This document shows positions 42,270-52,070 of a stretch of 64,000 nucleotides of DNA, piece by piece. The notes beneath the pieces are model-generated. The model saw only the letters and a program-made list of their open reading frames with translations, ran no database searches and was not told the DNA's origin. A program made the position numbers and the translations under genes. How positions within the stretch are numbered: the first letter of the stretch is position 1; every line of letters begins with the position of its first letter. This stretch comes from Candidatus Bathyarchaeia archaeon (lineage in GTDB: Archaea; Thermoproteota; Bathyarchaeia; Bathyarchaeales; Bathycorpusculaceae). The stretch covers positions 32,978 through 96,977 of the forward strand of contig JBEKBM010000009.1 in assembly GCA_050015395.1 (NCBI GenBank), in the 5' to 3' direction.

Positions 42270-42419
42270 TTCCTGCTTACACCACTTATCCTTGTTTTAT
42301 TATTGCAGATTGTTTTAGTATATTTGCTGCTTGTTCTTTAAGTTAACGCCTCGCGTATTCGTAGGTAGTTTACAAATTTTTTAAAAAACTTTGGTTTTTA
42401 GCTTTTAGCATTTAAACGT

Positions 42420-42593
42420 TTATGTCAATTTTATTATTAAAGTTTTTGTTGCTGCATCGTAGCTTTGAATGACTGCTTTTGTCTTTACGTGGCCGCTTTT
42501 ACCGTTTGGCAACGTTGCTTCTTTGATGCCAACTGCTTTCATAACGTCTGCAGGTACGCGCATGAATGAGCGCGCTTTCTTAAGGTCTACCAC
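42420..42593 (-). CDS. Small basic protein, possibly AbrB-like; start uncertain
   Basis: Manual translation VVDLKKARSFMRVPADVMKAVGIKE...YDAATKTLIIKLT*; under ORF-track cutoff. Confidence 0.45.
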   Translation of the reverse strand: MVDLKKARSFMRVPADVMKAVGIKEATLPNGKSGHVKTKAVIQSYDAATKTLIIKLT

Positions 42594-42642
42594 TTCGACG
42601 GCAAATGTCCTGGTTTTCGGAGCCTATTTTTTTGTTTTGAAC

Positions 42643-43560
42643 TTACTTGTTGAGGAATCTCCAGGAAAGGATTATGCCAACCGTGGTCAACGTTGCAGCG
42701 AATATTGCGACGTATGCGAAGTCAAATGGAGGGCTGAATGGAAATTTGCCCATACCATTGCTGAATATCATTAGCCGTCTGACCGCGTCTGTCGTGTACG
42801 ACATGGGGTTTACCTTCGCTACTACCTGCAACCACCCAGGCATTAGGTTTATTGGAACGAATGCGTTACTGGCAAACATAAGAGGCAGAGTTATCAGGTT
42901 CATGACGGCCTGAGGAGTTTCAATTCTTGTTGCTCTCAAGTTAATCGCGATGAAGAGCGATGACAAGCCCATGCCGATTAAGAAGACAATCGCAAATACT
43001 CCGAACACGCTGAAGACAGTGAAGTTCGTACCGAATTTTAGGCCAAAGACAATCGCTACAAACACAACGATTGCAGCTTGGAAAATAGATCGCAGCGCCG
43101 CTGAGAAAACCTTCGACAATATTATGACTGACCTTGAAACAGGAGTGCTTAGAACCTTGTTCAAGAAGCCGAGGCGACGATCCCAAACTACCGACATACC
43201 ACTGAAAGCAGCTGTGAAGAGCGTGACGAACACAACCATGCCCATAGCCATGTAGGAAAAGTAATCAGTGACACCAAATGTATTAGTCATTATGCTTGAG
43301 GATAAACTTTGGAATGCAGTGTTTAATTGACCAAGTTGGGATGCCGTGAGCGGCGGGTTAAACGCTATCACCGGTATTTGACTGGAGCTGAATATCGCAC
43401 CTATGTTCATTGATTTCCCCAGCAAACCCATCCAAATTATCGGCTGAATTATGGTCAGTAAGAAAACTATAGGAGCTTTGTACCATTTTTTCAGTTCGCG
43501 GTTTGTCAAAGCCCAAAGACCATGGAGCCTATTTTTTGAAACTTTTCCGTTTTCACTCAT
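42643..43560 (-). CDS. ABC-2 type permease (DrrB-like)
   Basis: DRRLGFLNKVLSTP, PLMFASNAF, NPMSY. Confidence 0.9.
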   Translation of the reverse strand: MSENGKVSKNRLHGLWALTNRELKKWYKAPIVFLLTIIQPIIWMGLLGKSMNIGAIFSSSQIPVIAFNPPLTASQLGQLNTAFQSLSSSIMTNTFGVTDYFSYMAMGMVVFVTLFTAAFSGMSVVWDRRLGFLNKVLSTPVSRSVIILSKVFSAALRSIFQAAIVVFVAIVFGLKFGTNFTVFSVFGVFAIVFLIGMGLSSLFIAINLRATRIETPQAVMNLITLPLMFASNAFVPINLMPGWLQVVAKVNPMSYTTDAVRRLMIFSNGMGKFPFSPPFDFAYVAIFAATLTTVGIILSWRFLNK

Positions 43561-44558
43561 GTTCTCGCCTTCCCAAGGGTAGTCCTCTGCGCCATAACTG
43601 CTTCCCTGGATTCTTCGGTGTCGCGCAGAGATTTCCCAGTGTATTGCAGGTAAACCTCGTTCAACGTCGGCTTTGTGAGCGAGAGCCTAATTACAATATG
43701 CCCTTCCCTGCGCAAGGCTTCAATAATTAGAGGCGCGGTCACTTCACCGTTTTCGGACTTTATCAAATAGGCTCCATTCTCTTTCTTAACGTCCACAACG
43801 TGTTCAATTTTTCTCATCAGCTCTGTGATATCTATGTCTTTCTGGATTGCAAGCGTTATTATGTCGCCGCCTAAACTTTCTTTCAACTCTTCAGGAGTTC
43901 CTACAACAACGATTTTTCCATGGTCAATTATGGCTATGCGGTCGCAAAGGGCGTCAGCTTCTTCAAGATAATGGGTAGTCATGAAGATAGTCATGCCGAA
44001 CTCTTTTTTCAGCATTCTAACATAATTCCATATTGCAGCTCTGGTTTGAACATCCAAGCCCAGCGTTGGCTCGTCCAAAAAAAGAACTTTAGGTCTGTTG
44101 ACTAAACCGCACGCAAGTTCTAACCTGCGGCGCATACCTCCTGAGTATGTTTGTACCCTTTTGTCTTTAAATGGTGCGAGATCGACAAGATTCAGTAGGT
44201 CTAGTCCCCGTTTTTTGGAAACTGTTTTGGGAATTCCATACAAATCAGCGCATAACAGTATGTTTTCGTATCCGGTTAAGTCTTCGTCAGCGGTGTATTC
44301 TTGCGGAACGAAGCCGATGGAGCTTCTGACGTCAACGTTTTGTTTGGCAATGTCGCTGCCCAGTATCGATGCTTTCCCTTCCGTTGGTCTTAGAAGCGTA
44401 ATGAGCATGTTTATGGTTGTTGTTTTTCCAGCACCGTTGGGTCCCAAGAACCCGAAGATTTCGCCGTGTTTGACGCTGAAATTTATGTGATCAACGGCAA
44501 CTAGACTGCCGTTGAAGACTTTGGTAAGACCCTCGACCTTAATTACATCTTCACTCAT
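43557..44558 (-). CDS. ABC exporter ATP-binding subunit (DrrA-like)
   Basis: GPNGAGKTT, YSGGMRRR, LDEPTLGLD. Confidence 0.95.
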   Translation of the reverse strand: MSEDVIKVEGLTKVFNGSLVAVDHINFSVKHGEIFGFLGPNGAGKTTTINMLITLLRPTEGKASILGSDIAKQNVDVRSSIGFVPQEYTADEDLTGYENILLCADLYGIPKTVSKKRGLDLLNLVDLAPFKDKRVQTYSGGMRRRLELACGLVNRPKVLFLDEPTLGLDVQTRAAIWNYVRMLKKEFGMTIFMTTHYLEEADALCDRIAIIDHGKIVVVGTPEELKESLGGDIITLAIQKDIDITELMRKIEHVVDVKKENGAYLIKSENGEVTAPLIIEALRREGHIVIRLSLTKPTLNEVYLQYTGKSLRDTEESREAVMAQRTTLGKART

Positions 44559-45102
44559 GCTTCTCACCTTTTAGTTTTTTATCAAGCTTTTCAAGTTTTT
44601 TTGTTGCTTCATTTAAAACACATATAACTTCGTCTAAGGCTTGGTCAGAGAAGTTGTCCTGTAGAGTGTTGCTTAGTTGGAAGAACGTTATGGCTAGACG
44701 TCTAATGGATTCGCGAATTTCCACGGTTTTTTCTGGGGATATTTTGAAGAGGAGCCCTTCAAAGAATGGAGCTGGCAGGAAACCGACCTCTTCTCTGAAC
44801 TTCGTTCTTATTTTTGCTTGTTCTTCAAGGAGTGATTTTCCACTTTCTGTCAGTTCATAACGTTTCAATCCGTTTTCAGTTGGCAACTCATGTATATATC
44901 CATTATTCTGTAGCCAAGATAGTAGCGGATAGATAGAGCCAGGACTCGGCCTCCAAAAACTGCTTGTGTTCTTTTCGATTTGGTTCATGATTTCGGATCC
45001 TGACATCGGTTTTTCGTTCAGGGCTTCGAGCACGCGAAAACGTATAAAGCCTTTTGGAACCATGGCAGTGTGTCGTGCCCAGTTTTTCTTGGGGGTTAAC
45101 AT
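44551..45102 (-). CDS. PadR family transcriptional regulator
   Basis: WRPSPGSIYPLL, YELTESG; GATATC palindromes around the start may be operators. Confidence 0.9.
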   Translation of the reverse strand: MLTPKKNWARHTAMVPKGFIRFRVLEALNEKPMSGSEIMNQIEKNTSSFWRPSPGSIYPLLSWLQNNGYIHELPTENGLKRYELTESGKSLLEEQAKIRTKFREEVGFLPAPFFEGLLFKISPEKTVEIRESIRRLAITFFQLSNTLQDNFSDQALDEVICVLNEATKKLEKLDKKLKGEKHE

Positions 45103-45325
45103 TGATATCACTATTGACATTAATGGCGATATCAAATATGATATTTAAGCTTGATGCCCAATAAACAGAACACATACACACTAATACTAATCCACTATTG
45201 TTCTCCCAGCAGTTTTTTTCAGCTCAAGTCGGAAAGGTTATTTAGTCTGCCCGTGTGCCCCCTTGAGTAAAAATGCAAACGCTAAGTGAACTCATGTTTG
45301 AATACTACGAACATCGAGGAGTTGC

Positions 45326-45970
45326 CTACAACGCTATGAAGAGTTGGGCCAACAGAGCCGCGGACAGTGGGATGGTGAGGTTGTCGTAGTAGTATTTCAT
45401 GGGCAGGGATTCTAAGAGCGCAGACACCGAGGCGATTAAGAGGGAGACCACAAAGAGTTTAGGGAGAGCTACTGGAACGAAAGCTAGCACGAAAGCTGTC
45501 GTGGCGAAAGCCACAATCGCGAAAGCAGCCGTGCCCTCCCAGTGCTTTCTCTCGTTGTAGCCTATCGAATGCTTTGGACGGGCTTTGCCGACAATGGATG
45601 CCGCGGAGTCCGCGTAGGAGAGAACCATTATCCCGACAAGGGCAGCATGTAGTTCAAGAAACGATACTACGAGCAAACCAGAGAGGCAGATGAACATGCC
45701 CCCCAGCATGGTTTTGTTCTCCAACTCATATCCGTTTGCCATAATCTTGTAGGCTTTTGAAGCGAAGGGAATGTTCCAGTTTCTTCCAGTCCTGAGAGAA
45801 AACTCAAGCAGAACGAAGAGGATTAAGAAAACACCATAAAGTCCCATGCCCAAGGCACGAGCCAACCAAGCATTAGAAATGCCTAGGACAATCAGAGGAG
45901 CAATCGTTCCCGTTATGAGCGCGTGAATGCTCTTTCGTTTAATTTCGATTCTCACTTCGGAACTCAGCAT
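45326..45970 (-). CDS. CTP-dependent lipid kinase (dolichol/phytol/Dgk1 family)
   Basis: RKSIH, DSAASIVG, KHWEG, DNLTIP; multi-TM. Confidence 0.8.
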   Translation of the reverse strand: MLSSEVRIEIKRKSIHALITGTIAPLIVLGISNAWLARALGMGLYGVFLILFVLLEFSLRTGRNWNIPFASKAYKIMANGYELENKTMLGGMFICLSGLLVVSFLELHAALVGIMVLSYADSAASIVGKARPKHSIGYNERKHWEGTAAFAIVAFATTAFVLAFVPVALPKLFVVSLLIASVSALLESLPMKYYYDNLTIPLSAALLAQLFIAL

Positions 45971-46473
45971 CAGTAAGGAACCTCCTTCAAACCAAATTTG
46001 TGGTCTGCGATGTTGGACAACAGGTGAAGTGGCGGCGTCAAAACAAAGATTATGATAAGCCCGACGAGCGTGGGCGTTTCAACTGCCGCGGCGAAAACAA
46101 GTCCCCCAACTACAAAGTCCAGTTGGTCAAACGGAAACCAAGATTTTCCCGGGGGTATTCCGCGCTGCCTCTTGAAAAAAGACTTCACGGCGTCTCCCGT
46201 CATAGCGCCAAACCCCAGAAGCACACCCAGCAGGAACCCGTCGGGCTTGCCAAAAACAAACTGCTGTATACCGCCAAGAAGAGTCCCGCACAATGCGCCG
46301 CCCACGAAGCCCCTGACCGTTTTGGAGGGACCAAAGATCGGCTTGCTTCTGAAAGTCCGCCCGAAGTCCAAAGGCGTTTTTCCTCTTAGCCTGAACCAGA
46401 CGGGGCTTATGCTGGCAAAATACGCTGGAAGAATGAACCACAAGGCACCCAGAAACTCACTCAAAAGGTCCAT
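45970..46473 (-). CDS. carS: CDP-archaeol synthase
   Basis: PAY, PLDFG, GPSKTVRG, GDAVKSFFKR, DQLDF, LKEVPY. Confidence 0.92.
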   Translation of the reverse strand: MDLLSEFLGALWFILPAYFASISPVWFRLRGKTPLDFGRTFRSKPIFGPSKTVRGFVGGALCGTLLGGIQQFVFGKPDGFLLGVLLGFGAMTGDAVKSFFKRQRGIPPGKSWFPFDQLDFVVGGLVFAAAVETPTLVGLIIIFVLTPPLHLLSNIADHKFGLKEVPY

Positions 46474-46477
46474 AGGA

Positions 46478-47035
46478 TCATGCCTCTTTCACGGTCTTGA
46501 AGAACAGGCTCAGAGATTTGGCGAGGGAAAGTGGCATCAATACGAAGGCGGCGATGAGAAACACAAAGTTTAGAGGATAAAGTCCAAGAATATAGGAAAC
46601 CTCCATAGCGAAGAACACAACGAACGTGGCTTTCCCAAATGCTGTCGGAGGCACAAACCTCAAACCCCTCGCCATGAGGTACAAGTTGTATGTAACCATG
46701 ACTAACTCGCGACTCACAATAAGAACTAACCCCCACCAAGGAAAGAGCCCCACCACAAACAAGCTTCCCAACAAGGCCACAAGGTTAACCCTATCAGCTG
46801 CAAAGTCAATCAGCCTGCCGAACTCGCTTGCCTGTTTGAGGAACCGCGCTATCCTGCCATCCGCCACATCTGTACAGAAAGAAACCGTAACCAAAACCGC
46901 AGCCGCCAACATATCTCGCGTCAAAATCTCATAAACTATAGGTGCTACAAGCACGAGTCTTGAGAAACTGAGCAGGTTTGGCACAGTAAGGTATTTGATT
47001 TTTCTTTGAGTGGGCGCATCATGAATGCCATCCAA
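46478..47035 (-). CDS. CDP-alcohol phosphatidyltransferase (PgsA-like)
   Basis: PNLLSFSR, DVADGRIAR...SEFG..ID..ADR. Confidence 0.9.
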   Translation of the reverse strand: MDGIHDAPTQRKIKYLTVPNLLSFSRLVLVAPIVYEILTRDMLAAAVLVTVSFCTDVADGRIARFLKQASEFGRLIDFAADRVNLVALLGSLFVVGLFPWWGLVLIVSRELVMVTYNLYLMARGLRFVPPTAFGKATFVVFFAMEVSYILGLYPLNFVFLIAAFVLMPLSLAKSLSLFFKTVKEA

Positions 47036-47513
47036 GCTGTTGTACCAACCAATGCCTCTAATTTTGGGGTTTTAGTTAAAATGCTTTTCCAAATCAAAAA
47101 GGGTAATGCTTCAAAATAAGCTGCCGGCGGAGAAGTGTCTACGAAAAAACGTCCAAACCCGCACTTGTCTGCGGATGCCAAGTCAGGCACAAAGAACAAT
47201 TGGTTCTCGGCAATAAATGATCCTCCAATTATGCAAACTGAGACCAATCGAATCAATAGGGTAACCCACCATAATGTTGTTGGTAAAATTAGCCCTAATC
47301 GATTCAGCCGTTTCTGTTCCGATTGCAGAGGCGTCAATTTCAATTCCTAGAAGTCTCAATAGAGTGCTTTTCCATTTGCCCGTGTATCCTGCTTGAGCCT
47401 TTTCCAACTTTGCTGCTGAGTACGTTAAGACTTGCCTAATTAAAAATTTGATTGAAAATCAAATCGCCTAACTCTTTCGCAGTAATTTGTTGAGGAAAAA
47501 AAGAAAGGGTACA

Positions 47514-48227
47514 TTAGAAGTTGATTTTGACGCTGCGTGAGAAGTATCCGAAGGGCATTTTCACTCTTTCGCCGTAGACCTGTTTCAGTAGCTTGATGTA
47601 GTCGTCTCTCTCATCCATTGTGAACTCATACTTTCCTTGGGAAGAGTGTATTTCCATTTCAAATTCGGAACGATACACTTGTCCGTTGCTCATTATGTCT
47701 TTGCTTTTGATTTTTACTTCGCTTGTGACATTGTTATCCACAGCAAAGTTGCCCGGGGTCTCGGTGAGTATGACTGAAGGCGGCATAGAAAAGTACCTTT
47801 GCGCGAAATTGAAGGAGACTTTCAGTTGGTCAGACCATTGGCCCAAAAAACCCTTTCCTTCGGCTTTTGCTTGGTCTCTCGCCATTTGCACCGCCTGCTT
47901 TACCATATCGCTGGTCATCTGGGCAAATATCATCCTCTGATTTGTCACTACGCCTGTAAAGCTGTCATATCTGCCAAGCGATTTAGGTTTCCTAAGCACC
48001 AGTACACCTAAGACGTTTTCGCCCGAAACAATCGGCGGTGGAGCTTGGACTGGAGTTGCCTGTGGCGCCAGCGGTGCAGGGGCAACTGGTTGAACAGGTT
48101 GAGGGGGCGTGCTCGTTGGTGCACTTGCTGACAACGGGATAGACACATTTGATTGGGCTGCTCCACAGTTTTTACAGAACTTTGCTGTTGAGCTAATTTC
48201 TAATCCGCAATTTTCACAATAGGGCAT
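47514..48227 (-). CDS. Zinc-ribbon protein with Pro-rich linker
   Basis: YCENCG...AKFCKNCG, Pro/Gln-rich linker, C-terminal globular domain. Confidence 0.85.
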   Translation of the reverse strand: MPYCENCGLEISSTAKFCKNCGAAQSNVSIPLSASAPTSTPPQPVQPVAPAPLAPQATPVQAPPPIVSGENVLGVLVLRKPKSLGRYDSFTGVVTNQRMIFAQMTSDMVKQAVQMARDQAKAEGKGFLGQWSDQLKVSFNFAQRYFSMPPSVILTETPGNFAVDNNVTSEVKIKSKDIMSNGQVYRSEFEMEIHSSQGKYEFTMDERDDYIKLLKQVYGERVKMPFGYFSRSVKINF

Positions 48228-48282
48228 ACTAAATCACTATGAGCAGATTCCGATGAGGATGTTTAAAAATTTTGCTGTCTAA

Positions 48283-48606
48283 CACGATATACAGACTAGA
48301 ATCAACTCTATCTGCAGTAAACACACGGCCACATTTCTGCAAAGGTTCAAAGAAAAAACTGGAGCAAGATGCAGAGAAATCTGGACCTAAGATGGGACGA
48401 TGTGGACTTCGAAAGCAAAATAATCAACTTAACTGCCGAAAAAGCCTCAACGCCTATATGTTCAACTAGATGAAGCATATTTTCAAGGCGAACAGGACTG
48501 CATCTCAAAGTATCTAAATAAGAGAAAGATATCTGCACGTTAATGAGAGCAAAATTTGGATTCGTTACCGAGTTTGAAGACGAAAAAATCTTCAGAAAAG
48601 AGAAGC
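48283..48606 (+). pseudogene. Tyrosine recombinase/integrase remnant
   Basis: KTGARCREIW(frameshift)DLRWDDVDFESKIINLTAEK and a C-terminal GFVTEFEDEKIFRK; heavily deleted. Confidence 0.7.
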
Positions 48607-48675
48607 TTTAATGTGCAAAAAAGCCCGAAAAACAAGAAAAATCGACAACGATGTCCCCGGCATATTTACTTATAT

Positions 48676-48701
48676 TGGTGCAGGGGGTGGGATTTGAACC
48701 C
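48676..48701 (-). other. tRNA 3' fragment (att-like, probably tRNA-Leu)
   Basis: Reverse complement GGGTTCAAATCCCACCCCCTGCACCA; no 5' half upstream; next to integrase remnant. Confidence 0.7.
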
Positions 48702-48983
48702 CCAATAAGCGGTCGTTATCGCCAATTTTCGCTTTCTCCGCAGCCCCTTCCCTTTTCCTTTTTTGATTGTTGCAATCGCTTGTTTGGCGGGTCCTATGGG
48801 ATGCATTTAATTACGCAGTGAAAGCTATAAACTATTATGTTGCACGCTTGTTCTTTAGGTTAACTGCACTTTGCGGGGAAAACCTTTGATTCTGGAACGG
48901 GCTGTGGCTTAGAAATGTTGATTTTTGCTTTAAACTTGTATAAATAGAGGAGATTGGGTTTCTGGGGATGCGAAATAATTAAT

Positions 48984-51720: not shown

Positions 51721-51794
51721 GGGCAGGTAGTGAAGACTGGTATCATGGGCGCCTATCAAGCGCAAGTTCTCGGGTTCGAGTCCCGACCTGTCCA
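51721..51794 (+). tRNA. Atypical tRNA: Ala-type acceptor (G3:U70, A73) with ATC anticodon
   Basis: GGGCAGG TA GTGA AGACTGGTA TCAT G GGCGC CTATCAA GCGCA AGTTC TCGGG TTCGAGT CCCGA CCTGTCC A; TATA-like TTTTAAATA at 51686-51694. Confidence 0.75.
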
Positions 51795-52070
51795 CTATAA
51801 CAAACTTCAAAAAGTTTTAAATGAAACCCGTTCATCTTTACGGATATCCCGGGTTCTCATCTCGTGTGTGAAGACTGGTATCATCACAGCTTTTATCCGT
51901 GATTACACAATCACAGTATTTGTTAATAAGTGTTACTTTTTGTTACCTTGATAAAGTAACAATATACGTTAATGTTCCATGCATGGTTGTGTCTTCAAAA
52001 AGTTAACCTCAAAAATCAGAGCAAAATTAGCTTAAAAGAAAGATTAAAATTTTAGTTTAGGGGTTTGTGT

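Follow-up and report, generated by a model that had tools for sequence, protein, structure and literature searches.

A three-gene lipid cassette shared between distant archaeal lineages, with a second CDP-archaeol synthase and a possible role in ether-lipid salvage

Yeast has a CTP-dependent diacylglycerol kinase, Dgk1, whose domain is of the cytidylyltransferase type and contains an essential conserved aspartate; the enzyme supplies phosphatidate to the CDP-diacylglycerol (CDP-DAG) pathway (PMC2459266). Cds1 then activates the phosphatidate with CDP, and CDP-alcohol phosphatidyltransferases (CAPTs) such as Pgs1, Crd1 and Pis1 transfer the head groups. The canonical archaeal pathway leads from digeranylgeranylglyceryl phosphate (DGGGP) through the synthase CarS to CDP-archaeol, and from there to archaetidylglycerol phosphate, archaetidylinositol phosphate or archaetidylserine. 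Here we describe a three-gene cassette of a Candidatus Bathyarchaeia archaeon (assembly GCA_050015395.1, host genome G000 below) that encodes a ClsA/PgsA-like CAPT, a second copy of CarS and a 214-aa membrane protein that may be a core-lipid kinase. It lies in a 64,000-nucleotide (nt) stretch of contig JBEKBM010000009.1 (positions 32,978 to 96,977), hereafter the window, to which all plain coordinates refer.

The cassette resembles the yeast route in its proposed sequence of CTP-dependent phosphorylation, CDP activation and CAPT-mediated head-group transfer, but the substrates proposed are isoprenoid ethers, CarS stands in place of Cds1, and a single mobile operon holds genes that are dispersed in yeast. 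Its kinase-like protein is also too diverged to match the Pfam family PF01148. Like the canonical archaeal pathway, the cassette has a CarS that passes the equivalog model and a CAPT that carries the family motif; unlike that pathway, its CarS is an additional copy from a separate clade and shares an operon with a kinase-family gene. Judged by automatic names, the third protein belongs to the same superfamily as the kinases of VTE5/VTE6 phytol salvage and Sec59/DOLK, which differ in making prenyl phosphates for tocopherol or glycan carriers and in lacking linkage to a CDP-lipid synthase and a CAPT. Kinases of the Sec59, DOLK and VTE5 type use CTP. The cassette transferase scores best on the ClsA model NF053678 and in this respect resembles the CAPT-type (CMP-forming) cardiolipin synthases of actinobacteria and eukaryotes, although it falls far below the 240-bit cut-off of that model, its proposed donor is CDP-archaeol and its host is an archaeon. 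According to a 2022 review of archaeal phospholipid synthesis (PMC9385802), the canonical archaeal CAPTs are of the inositol-phosphate or serine type, in contrast with the bacterial ClsA/PgsA type of the cassette, and the known archaeal cardiolipin synthases are of the phospholipase D type.

Each of these enzyme families is thus already known; what is new is one mobile archaeal operon with a dedicated second CarS clade and a bacterial-type ClsA/PgsA-like transferase. Our searches of the literature, whose coverage left out most subscription journals, turned up neither an archaeol kinase nor an operon of this kind.

Three coupled genes and their protein families

The cassette comprises three genes on the minus strand, listed in the order of transcription:

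46478 to 47035, minus strand: CDP-alcohol phosphatidyltransferase (CAPT), ClsA/PgsA-like, 185 aa, first cassette gene (PF01066 match)
45970 to 46473, minus strand: second (cassette) copy of the CDP-archaeol synthase CarS, 167 aa (PF01864, NF003114, alignment to 5GUF)
45326 to 45970, minus strand: 214-aa membrane protein, putative core-lipid kinase, third cassette gene (fold, distant relatives, automatic names)

Four nt separate the stop codon of the first gene from the start codon of the second, while the stop codon of the second and the start codon of the third share one nt (TGATG); the cassette genes are translationally coupled. The original prediction of three abutting, GC-rich genes agrees with these minus-strand open reading frames (ORFs), which occupy exactly the positions it gave, and with their GC contents of 0.478, 0.530 and 0.499 (transferase, CarS and third gene; 0.50 for the whole cassette), compared with a genome value of 0.426 and a window value of 0.438. 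Computed over 300 nt at a time, GC reaches a maximum of 0.56 within the cassette and is 0.39-0.44 immediately outside it. The GC contents at third codon positions (GC3; 0.548, 0.607 and 0.591) are the top three among the ORFs of the window and lie at the 96.7th, 99.4th and 99.1th percentiles of 1808 mechanically called genome ORFs of at least 160 aa, some of which are spurious. As to the gene identities first proposed, that of CarS stands, that of the transferase stands as ClsA/PgsA-like but below every equivalog cut-off, and that of the third gene holds at the superfamily level only.

The cassette CarS matches the CarS-like family PF01864 at 120 bits (cut-off 22, E 1.5e-34), narrowly passes the equivalog model NF003114 (151 bits versus 148) and aligns over its full length with A. 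pernix CarS (5GUF; residues 6-167 against 13-174, E 2.3e-15). Residues K51, T52, G55, G93, D94, K101, R102, D116 and Q117 are invariant in 19 CarS sequences that include canonical ones. A check for a second, native carS in the host genome (2.59 Mb, 42 contigs, 98.9% complete) found one on another contig (C5:63751-64239), whose protein is 40% identical to the cassette copy and outscores it on both models (179.8 bits on NF003114); its neighbours are housekeeping-looking genes, to go by names read from their ORF translations. A native CarS and a geranylgeranylglyceryl phosphate synthase (GGGPS) were present in every host examined. The cassette CarS forms a separate clade of 33 clusters at 90% identity, with the next sequences at 53% identity or less, and the third protein and the transferase likewise form clades of 28 and 27 such clusters, with a clear gap around each. 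Six distant CarS-family matches carry an NCBI name and organism, two of them bacterial metagenome-assembled genomes (MAGs). These two, 'Patescibacteria group bacterium' and 'Ktedonobacter sp.', have CarS relatives that are 40-44% identical to the cassette CarS.

The transferase matches PF01066 (CDP-OH_P_transf) at 91 bits (cut-off 22, E 1.3e-25), its residues 17-167 aligning with model positions 2-150 of 152. Its translation carries the complete CAPT pattern (DVADGRIAR-FLKQASEF-G-RLI-D-FAA-D), the signature of the family being Dx2DGx2ARx8Gx3Dx3D. The 2022 review speaks of a 'hallmark CAPT-motif' (PMC9385802). On the best NCBIfam model, ClsA NF053678, the transferase scores 83.2 bits and on pgsA TIGR00560 56.6 bits against a cut-off of 109.1, and its orthologues at two further loci (L026 and L066) also fall under the ClsA and PgsA equivalog cut-offs. 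Outside its clade it comes closest to Mycolicibacterium proteins that bear the names 'cardiolipin synthase' or 'PGP synthase' (36-39% identity), one of which (P0212) scores 218 bits on the ClsA model; a PDB sequence search with the transferase gave no match. The sole other CAPT in the host genome is archaetidylinositol-phosphate-synthase-like (176.6 bits versus a cut-off of 180), and the cassette transferase would give this host a new head group. The cassette transferase is a bacterial-type ClsA/PgsA-like enzyme, probably recruited to CDP-archaeol chemistry.

The evidence on the third protein comes from its relatives and its predicted fold. A word-seeded search returned 32 homologues, 28 at 55-100% identity and four distant; eight of the 32 carry the JGI name 'dolichol kinase', and a PDB sequence search gave no match. 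A profile of 23 sequences, run against 1.84 billion representatives, matched 11,868 proteins at E <= 0.001; the close clade makes up one 50% cluster in this search, and the next match has an E of 6e-41. Six of 28 distant relatives match PF01148 (CTP_transf_1) with E <= 0.01, and two of these exceed the 24-bit cut-off; since the third protein itself has no such match, its link to this family is transitive only. The AF2 model of the protein has a pLDDT of 92. A Foldseek search of this model against the PDB gave nothing at E <= 0.001 (4q2e_B ranked seventh, E 0.52), while VIA-align against 48,161 chains placed the CDP-DAG synthase TmCdsA (4q2e) at the top with a Z of 9.0 (rmsd 5.6 over 177 residues), Z values below ~13 being indecisive for helical bundles. 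The alignment to A. pernix CarS (5guf; Z 5.9, rmsd 3.2, 103 aligned residues) covers residues 106-214, the C-terminal half of the third protein. Its ESM Atlas neighbours are named 'diacylglycerol/polyprenol kinase family' (score 0.96).

Residues D121, G128, G146, E187 and D196 of the third protein are invariant in 30 diverse relatives, G128 lying seven residues past D121, and the pattern Dx2Ax3GK...Kx2EG...E...DNxxxP is kept across thousands of relatives. We take this pattern to be that of the kinase branch, as distinct from the CdsA signature. D121 would be the equivalent of the conserved catalytic aspartate of Dgk1 (D177). R76, K77 and G184 are further essential residues of Dgk1. The fold matches to TmCdsA and CarS, the PF01148 matches among relatives, and the Atlas and JGI names give good but not decisive support for the third protein as a predicted member of the CTP-transferase-fold lipid kinase superfamily. 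G000 also encodes a native paralogue of the third protein (238 aa; C13, locus L024 319-2467), which has no Pfam match.

Conserved linkage, transfer between lineages and the 6.5-kb insert

A survey of the three-gene synteny drew on 17 further loci with an orthologue of the third gene (at least 57% identity), from two species genomes, two congeners and 13 metagenomes. The linkage is conserved: the CarS gene lies directly upstream of the third gene in 16 of 16 assessable loci, and all three genes occur together in 14 of 15 (12 of 13 when two window-identical loci are left aside). The exception is the congener G026, which has a frameshifted kinase gene and a CarS remnant of only 34 aa; in a second congener, G091, the CarS frame is intact without a canonical start codon. 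The flanks of the cassette differ between loci in at least six ways, with lipoate genes, tRNA-Lys and ribosomal-protein genes, toxin-antitoxin genes and Alba, shikimate kinase, radical S-adenosylmethionine (SAM) genes, and UbiA with an ABC-2 transporter among the neighbours. The identities of the three proteins to their window copies rise and fall together across loci, and the ratio of nonsynonymous to synonymous substitution rates (dN/dS) is 0.05-0.15 for all three genes in pairs with unsaturated dS (9 of 14 computed pairs). The cassette genes are under purifying selection. Window DNA was present in 24 listed DNA runs whose labels give peat or wetland metagenome as the origin and which possibly include the source sample; none of the runs is recorded as RNA.

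We compared the cassette proteins and native lipid-synthesis proteins of four genomes with those of G000 (cassette identities are in the order transferase, CarS, kinase):

G061, a 1.1-Mb MAG titled Micrarchaeota: cassette 86/90/77%; GGGPS 46%, native CarS 39%
G062, a MAG titled 'Nanoarchaeia': cassette 86/90/84%; native genes 70-77%
G091, a congener: cassette 65/75/58%
G026, a congener: decayed kinase (about 59%) and CarS remnant only; GGGPS 88%, native CarS 82%

The cassette is therefore most alike in the genomes with the most different native genes and least alike within the genus, and in G061 the ribosomal-protein region that adjoins the cassette is only 38-60% identical to G000 (tblastx). 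This incongruence between cassette and native genes shows that the cassette moves between lineages. Whatever its biochemistry, it offers a clear case of lipid-pathway genes moving between such lineages.

We considered whether the hosts could be DPANN cells that lack lipid synthesis and rely on the cassette, and rejected this for both genomes with DPANN titles: G061 (1.1 Mb) has a GGGPS and a second CarS, and G062 has its own GGGPS and CarS, which at 70-77% identity mark it as a relative of G000. Given this identity, the label 'Candidatus Nanoarchaeia archaeon' of G062 (2.1 Mb, locus L027) looks doubtful, and the two partial native-type CarS genes at its contig ends suggest redundancy in the bin.

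In G000 the cassette lies within 6,498 nt (42348-48845) between the genes for topoisomerase VI subunit B and ABCE1. These two genes directly abut in G003, which at 88-91% nucleotide identity is the closest congener. The features of this insert outside the cassette are:

42329 to 42347, no strand: left-hand copy of the 19-nt direct repeat found at both insert boundaries, GCTTGTTCTTTAAGTTAAC; homology with G003 breaks exactly here
48846 to 48864, no strand: right-hand copy of this repeat, matching the left-hand one at 18 of 19 bases
48313 to 48605, plus strand: decayed tyrosine-integrase gene, four collinear tblastn pieces in two frames
48676 to 48701, minus strand: 3' fragment of a tRNA-Leu gene (T arm, acceptor stem, CCA), an att-like remnant equal to the last 26 bases of the tRNA-Leu(cag) of congener G030
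42643 to 45135, minus strand: PadR regulator with ATPase and permease of an ABC-2 (DrrA-type) exporter (Pfam)
47514 to 48227, minus strand: zinc-ribbon protein (PF13240, E 1.1e-06)

The insert also contains a 57-aa ORF. The flanking repeat, GCTTGTTCTTTARGTTAAC, is present in a single copy in G003, where there is no insert. The integrase pieces correspond to two segments, residues 120-166 and 261-311, of a 311-aa protein that is intact in G030; residues 167-260 are missing, and one in-frame stop is present. The intact gene abuts the tRNA-Leu(cag) gene of G030 in the arrangement seen in the window, and the name 'integrase' for its product is our reading of that protein's sequence. The 50-aa integrase piece of the window gave no Pfam match, no phage tblastn match and no further copy in its own genome; its sole confirmation comes from the intact G030 gene. 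The tRNA-Leu fragment also matches the 3' ends of the host's own tRNA-Leu genes, and ARAGORN and Rfam found no whole tRNA at this site.

A decayed integrase, a tRNA-Leu 3' end, flanking repeats and an empty site in G003 together point to a degraded integrated element of the tRNA-targeting tyrosine-integrase type, although the repeat differs from the tRNA fragment. The same arrangement would result if G003 had lost the segment through recombination between the repeats, and the junction varies among other congeners. Insertion is the better reading in view of the remnants of an integrase gene and a tRNA gene, the outlying GC3 values and how rarely the cassette occurs. The incongruence of cassette and native genes, the absence of the insert from G003 and the integrase pieces thus bear out the original prediction that the cassette was acquired horizontally near an integrase remnant.

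Other genes of the insert appear to be separate from the cassette. Among the other loci, the zinc-ribbon gene adjoins the cassette only in L081, a copy with 100% identity to the window, and in L002, which is the window's own DNA. We rejected the PadR and ABC-2 genes as cassette members, as they adjoin it only in window-identical copies; a different ABC-2 pair lies near the cassette in L092. The 478-nt gap 5' of the cassette (47036-47513) holds only ORFs of 132 aa and 74 aa, both without Pfam support. Elsewhere in G000 (C3:45251-48036), a paralogous PadR and ABC-2 operon, with 33-57% amino-acid identity to that of the insert, lies beside a sequence like the 3' end of tRNA-Leu; a further element of this kind may have left its remains here.

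A possible salvage route and its alternatives

We tentatively propose, as the best-supported explanation and with a confidence a little short of an even chance, that the cassette is a mobile three-gene salvage route that leads from a core lipid alcohol through its phosphate and CDP-lipid to a polar lipid. The kinase activity, the substrate, the order of the steps and the head group we infer from family analogy and gene linkage. In the first step, the putative kinase would use CTP to phosphorylate, at its free hydroxyl, a glycerol ether core lipid, either archaeol or digeranylgeranylglycerol and possibly a tetraether, which could arise by head-group loss or from glycolipid metabolism or could come from outside the cell. 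The cassette CarS would then turn the archaetidic-acid-type lipid into its CDP-activated form, and the ClsA/PgsA-like transferase would add a glycerol-type head group, yielding archaetidylglycerol phosphate or a cardiolipin-like lipid. The whole route could be driven by CTP alone, as a self-contained accessory pathway.

The presence of a second CarS would fit such a route. According to the 2022 review, CarS activity strongly favours unsaturated DGGGP over saturated archaetidic acid (PMC9385802), so that the recycling of saturated cores would call for a CarS of its own. That the cassette carries its own CarS although all hosts examined have one likewise suggests a substrate that the native route handles poorly.

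Several observations weigh against this salvage route. The cassette orthologue is rare, occurring in three of 120 genomes of the genus and in two of 401 genomes of a class-wide sample (131 genera), and the cassette is decaying in one congener (G026); together, rarity and decay imply that its function is dispensable. The cassette contains no enzyme that generates free core lipid. The kinase role of the third protein is itself drawn from family analogy and gene linkage: the protein matches no Pfam model, even at E 10, and no NCBIfam model; its fold Z of 9 is within the reach of chance for helical bundles; and hhalign comparisons of two kinase-family profiles with the CarS profile were not significant (3.6% and 12% probability). 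Known members of the kinase family mostly act on prenols such as dolichol, phytol and farnesol. In addition, the unsaturated-substrate preference of CarS was measured in crude membranes, and the review itself asks for its confirmation (PMC9385802).

The prenol specificity of the family raises the alternative, to which we assign a real but minor share of probability, that the third protein is a prenol kinase (VTE5/FOLK/Sec59-like) that recycles geranylgeraniol, phytol, polyprenol or dolichol for the synthesis of ether lipids or glycan carriers. It would then travel with CarS and the transferase because of a common role in lipid synthesis, while its product would not be a CarS substrate. The automatic names 'dolichol kinase' and 'diacylglycerol/polyprenol kinase' agree with such an activity, as do the geranylgeraniol and geranylgeranyl-phosphate kinase activities of Sulfolobus (Ohnuma 1996, as cited in PMC9385802). 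The genomic context of the native paralogue in G000, which lies directly 3' of a gene for a DGGGP-synthase-like UbiA prenyltransferase and directly 5' of a thymidylate-kinase-family gene, also fits geranylgeraniol or phytol salvage equally well, and the cassette of L092 likewise lies beside such a UbiA gene. However, a prenyl monophosphate is a substrate of neither CarS nor CAPTs, yet the three genes are coupled and stay together in unrelated neighbourhoods; moreover, the cassette has no second kinase for the prenyl phosphate, and the host paralogue could already do this job. A different activity on the same fold, for instance a cytidylyltransferase for another lipid phosphate, would turn the cassette into a source of a new CDP-linked lipid or head group with no salvage step. 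We consider this improbable: the best fold match is indeed the cytidylyltransferase TmCdsA, the protein matches no curated kinase model, and the superfamily comprises both cytidylyltransferases and kinases (PMC2459266), but CarS already supplies a cytidylyltransferase in the cassette and the JGI and Atlas names are kinase names. The conserved pattern, if it is indeed that of the kinase branch and not the CdsA signature, also speaks for a kinase.

The bacterial character of the transferase invites the further suggestion that the cassette handles bacterial-type lipids, converting scavenged diacylglycerol through CDP-DAG into phosphatidylglycerol or cardiolipin and so providing a peat archaeon with ester phospholipids. 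Outside its clade the transferase is closest to enzymes of the actinobacterial ClsA/PgsA type, the 2022 review states that the glycerol-3-phosphate-type CAPT group is absent from archaea (PMC9385802), the substrate of Dgk1 is diacylglycerol (PMC2459266), and two of the six organism-named distant CarS homologues come from bacterial MAGs. Nevertheless, the middle gene passes the CarS equivalog cut-off, the known hosts are all archaea with GGGPS, and CarS purified from A. fulgidus accepts DGGGP with high selectivity over phosphatidic acid of the bacterial type, as the same review reports (PMC9385802); we regard this suggestion as highly improbable.

A more specific form of the salvage route, which we consider distinctly unlikely, is that the cassette enables archaea of peat and sediment to import relic ether cores (archaeol, perhaps glycerol dialkyl glycerol tetraethers (GDGTs)) and re-functionalise them into their own phospholipids. 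The cores would come from the surroundings or from neighbouring cells, and the cassette CarS would be tuned to saturated or tetraether phosphatidates. Isotope probing has long suggested that sedimentary archaea recycle or re-functionalise old core lipids, and the proposed salvage route as a whole would give this process its first candidate genes. A 2026 bioRxiv preprint describes relic-lipid recycling by archaea as still open, with no known enzymes (10.64898/2026.05.15.725266), and in the 2022 review (PMC9385802) the words 'salvage' and 'recycl' do not occur. If true, this form of the route would supply the enzymology missing behind the 'archaeal lipid recycling' of isotope probing, and the transfer of the cassette between Bathyarchaeia and the 'Micrarchaeota' MAG would spread the ability to re-functionalise such lipids. 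Should archaeol or GDGT cores prove to be its substrates, the putative kinase would be the first of its kind for core lipids in archaea, would affect the use of intact polar lipids as markers of living biomass and could serve as a tool for archaeal lipid engineering. In any case, the compact mobile three-gene operon is a concrete gene set to express and assay.

Related kinase-family loci and further observations

The wider kinase family also occurs next to polar-lipid genes outside the cassette. In five of 46 distant-homologue loci scanned, of the type of anaerobic methanotrophic archaea group 1 (ANME-1), the gene for a homologue of the third protein forms a row with a flippase-like gene and one for an archaetidylserine-synthase-like CAPT, which provides an independent context for a polar-lipid role of the family. 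In an ANME-1 'Methanophagaceae' MAG (L038 5821-9228), the row consists of the kinase-family homologue (202 aa), a flippase-like TIGR00374 protein, a PssA-like archaetidylserine synthase and a radical SAM/SPASM protein. The same four-gene row occurs in L096, L097, L102 and L109, and it may be another lipid head-group module.

Genomes of the same order also encode the kinase-like membrane domain as the C-terminal half of a 435-aa protein (L005 763-2070), the N-terminal half of which is a phosphatase domain of the HAD family. Similar open frames of 412-482 aa are present in other genomes of the order and genus.

ARAGORN, run on the whole genome, found no tRNA-Tyr or tRNA-Trp, and the tRNA set is thus incomplete. 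The only tRNA-Asp that it called in the genome lies in the window (51721-51795, plus strand) and has the anticodon ATC, with A at position 34, and a tRNA-Ile with anticodon AAT was also found. Such A34 tRNAs are unusual for archaea.

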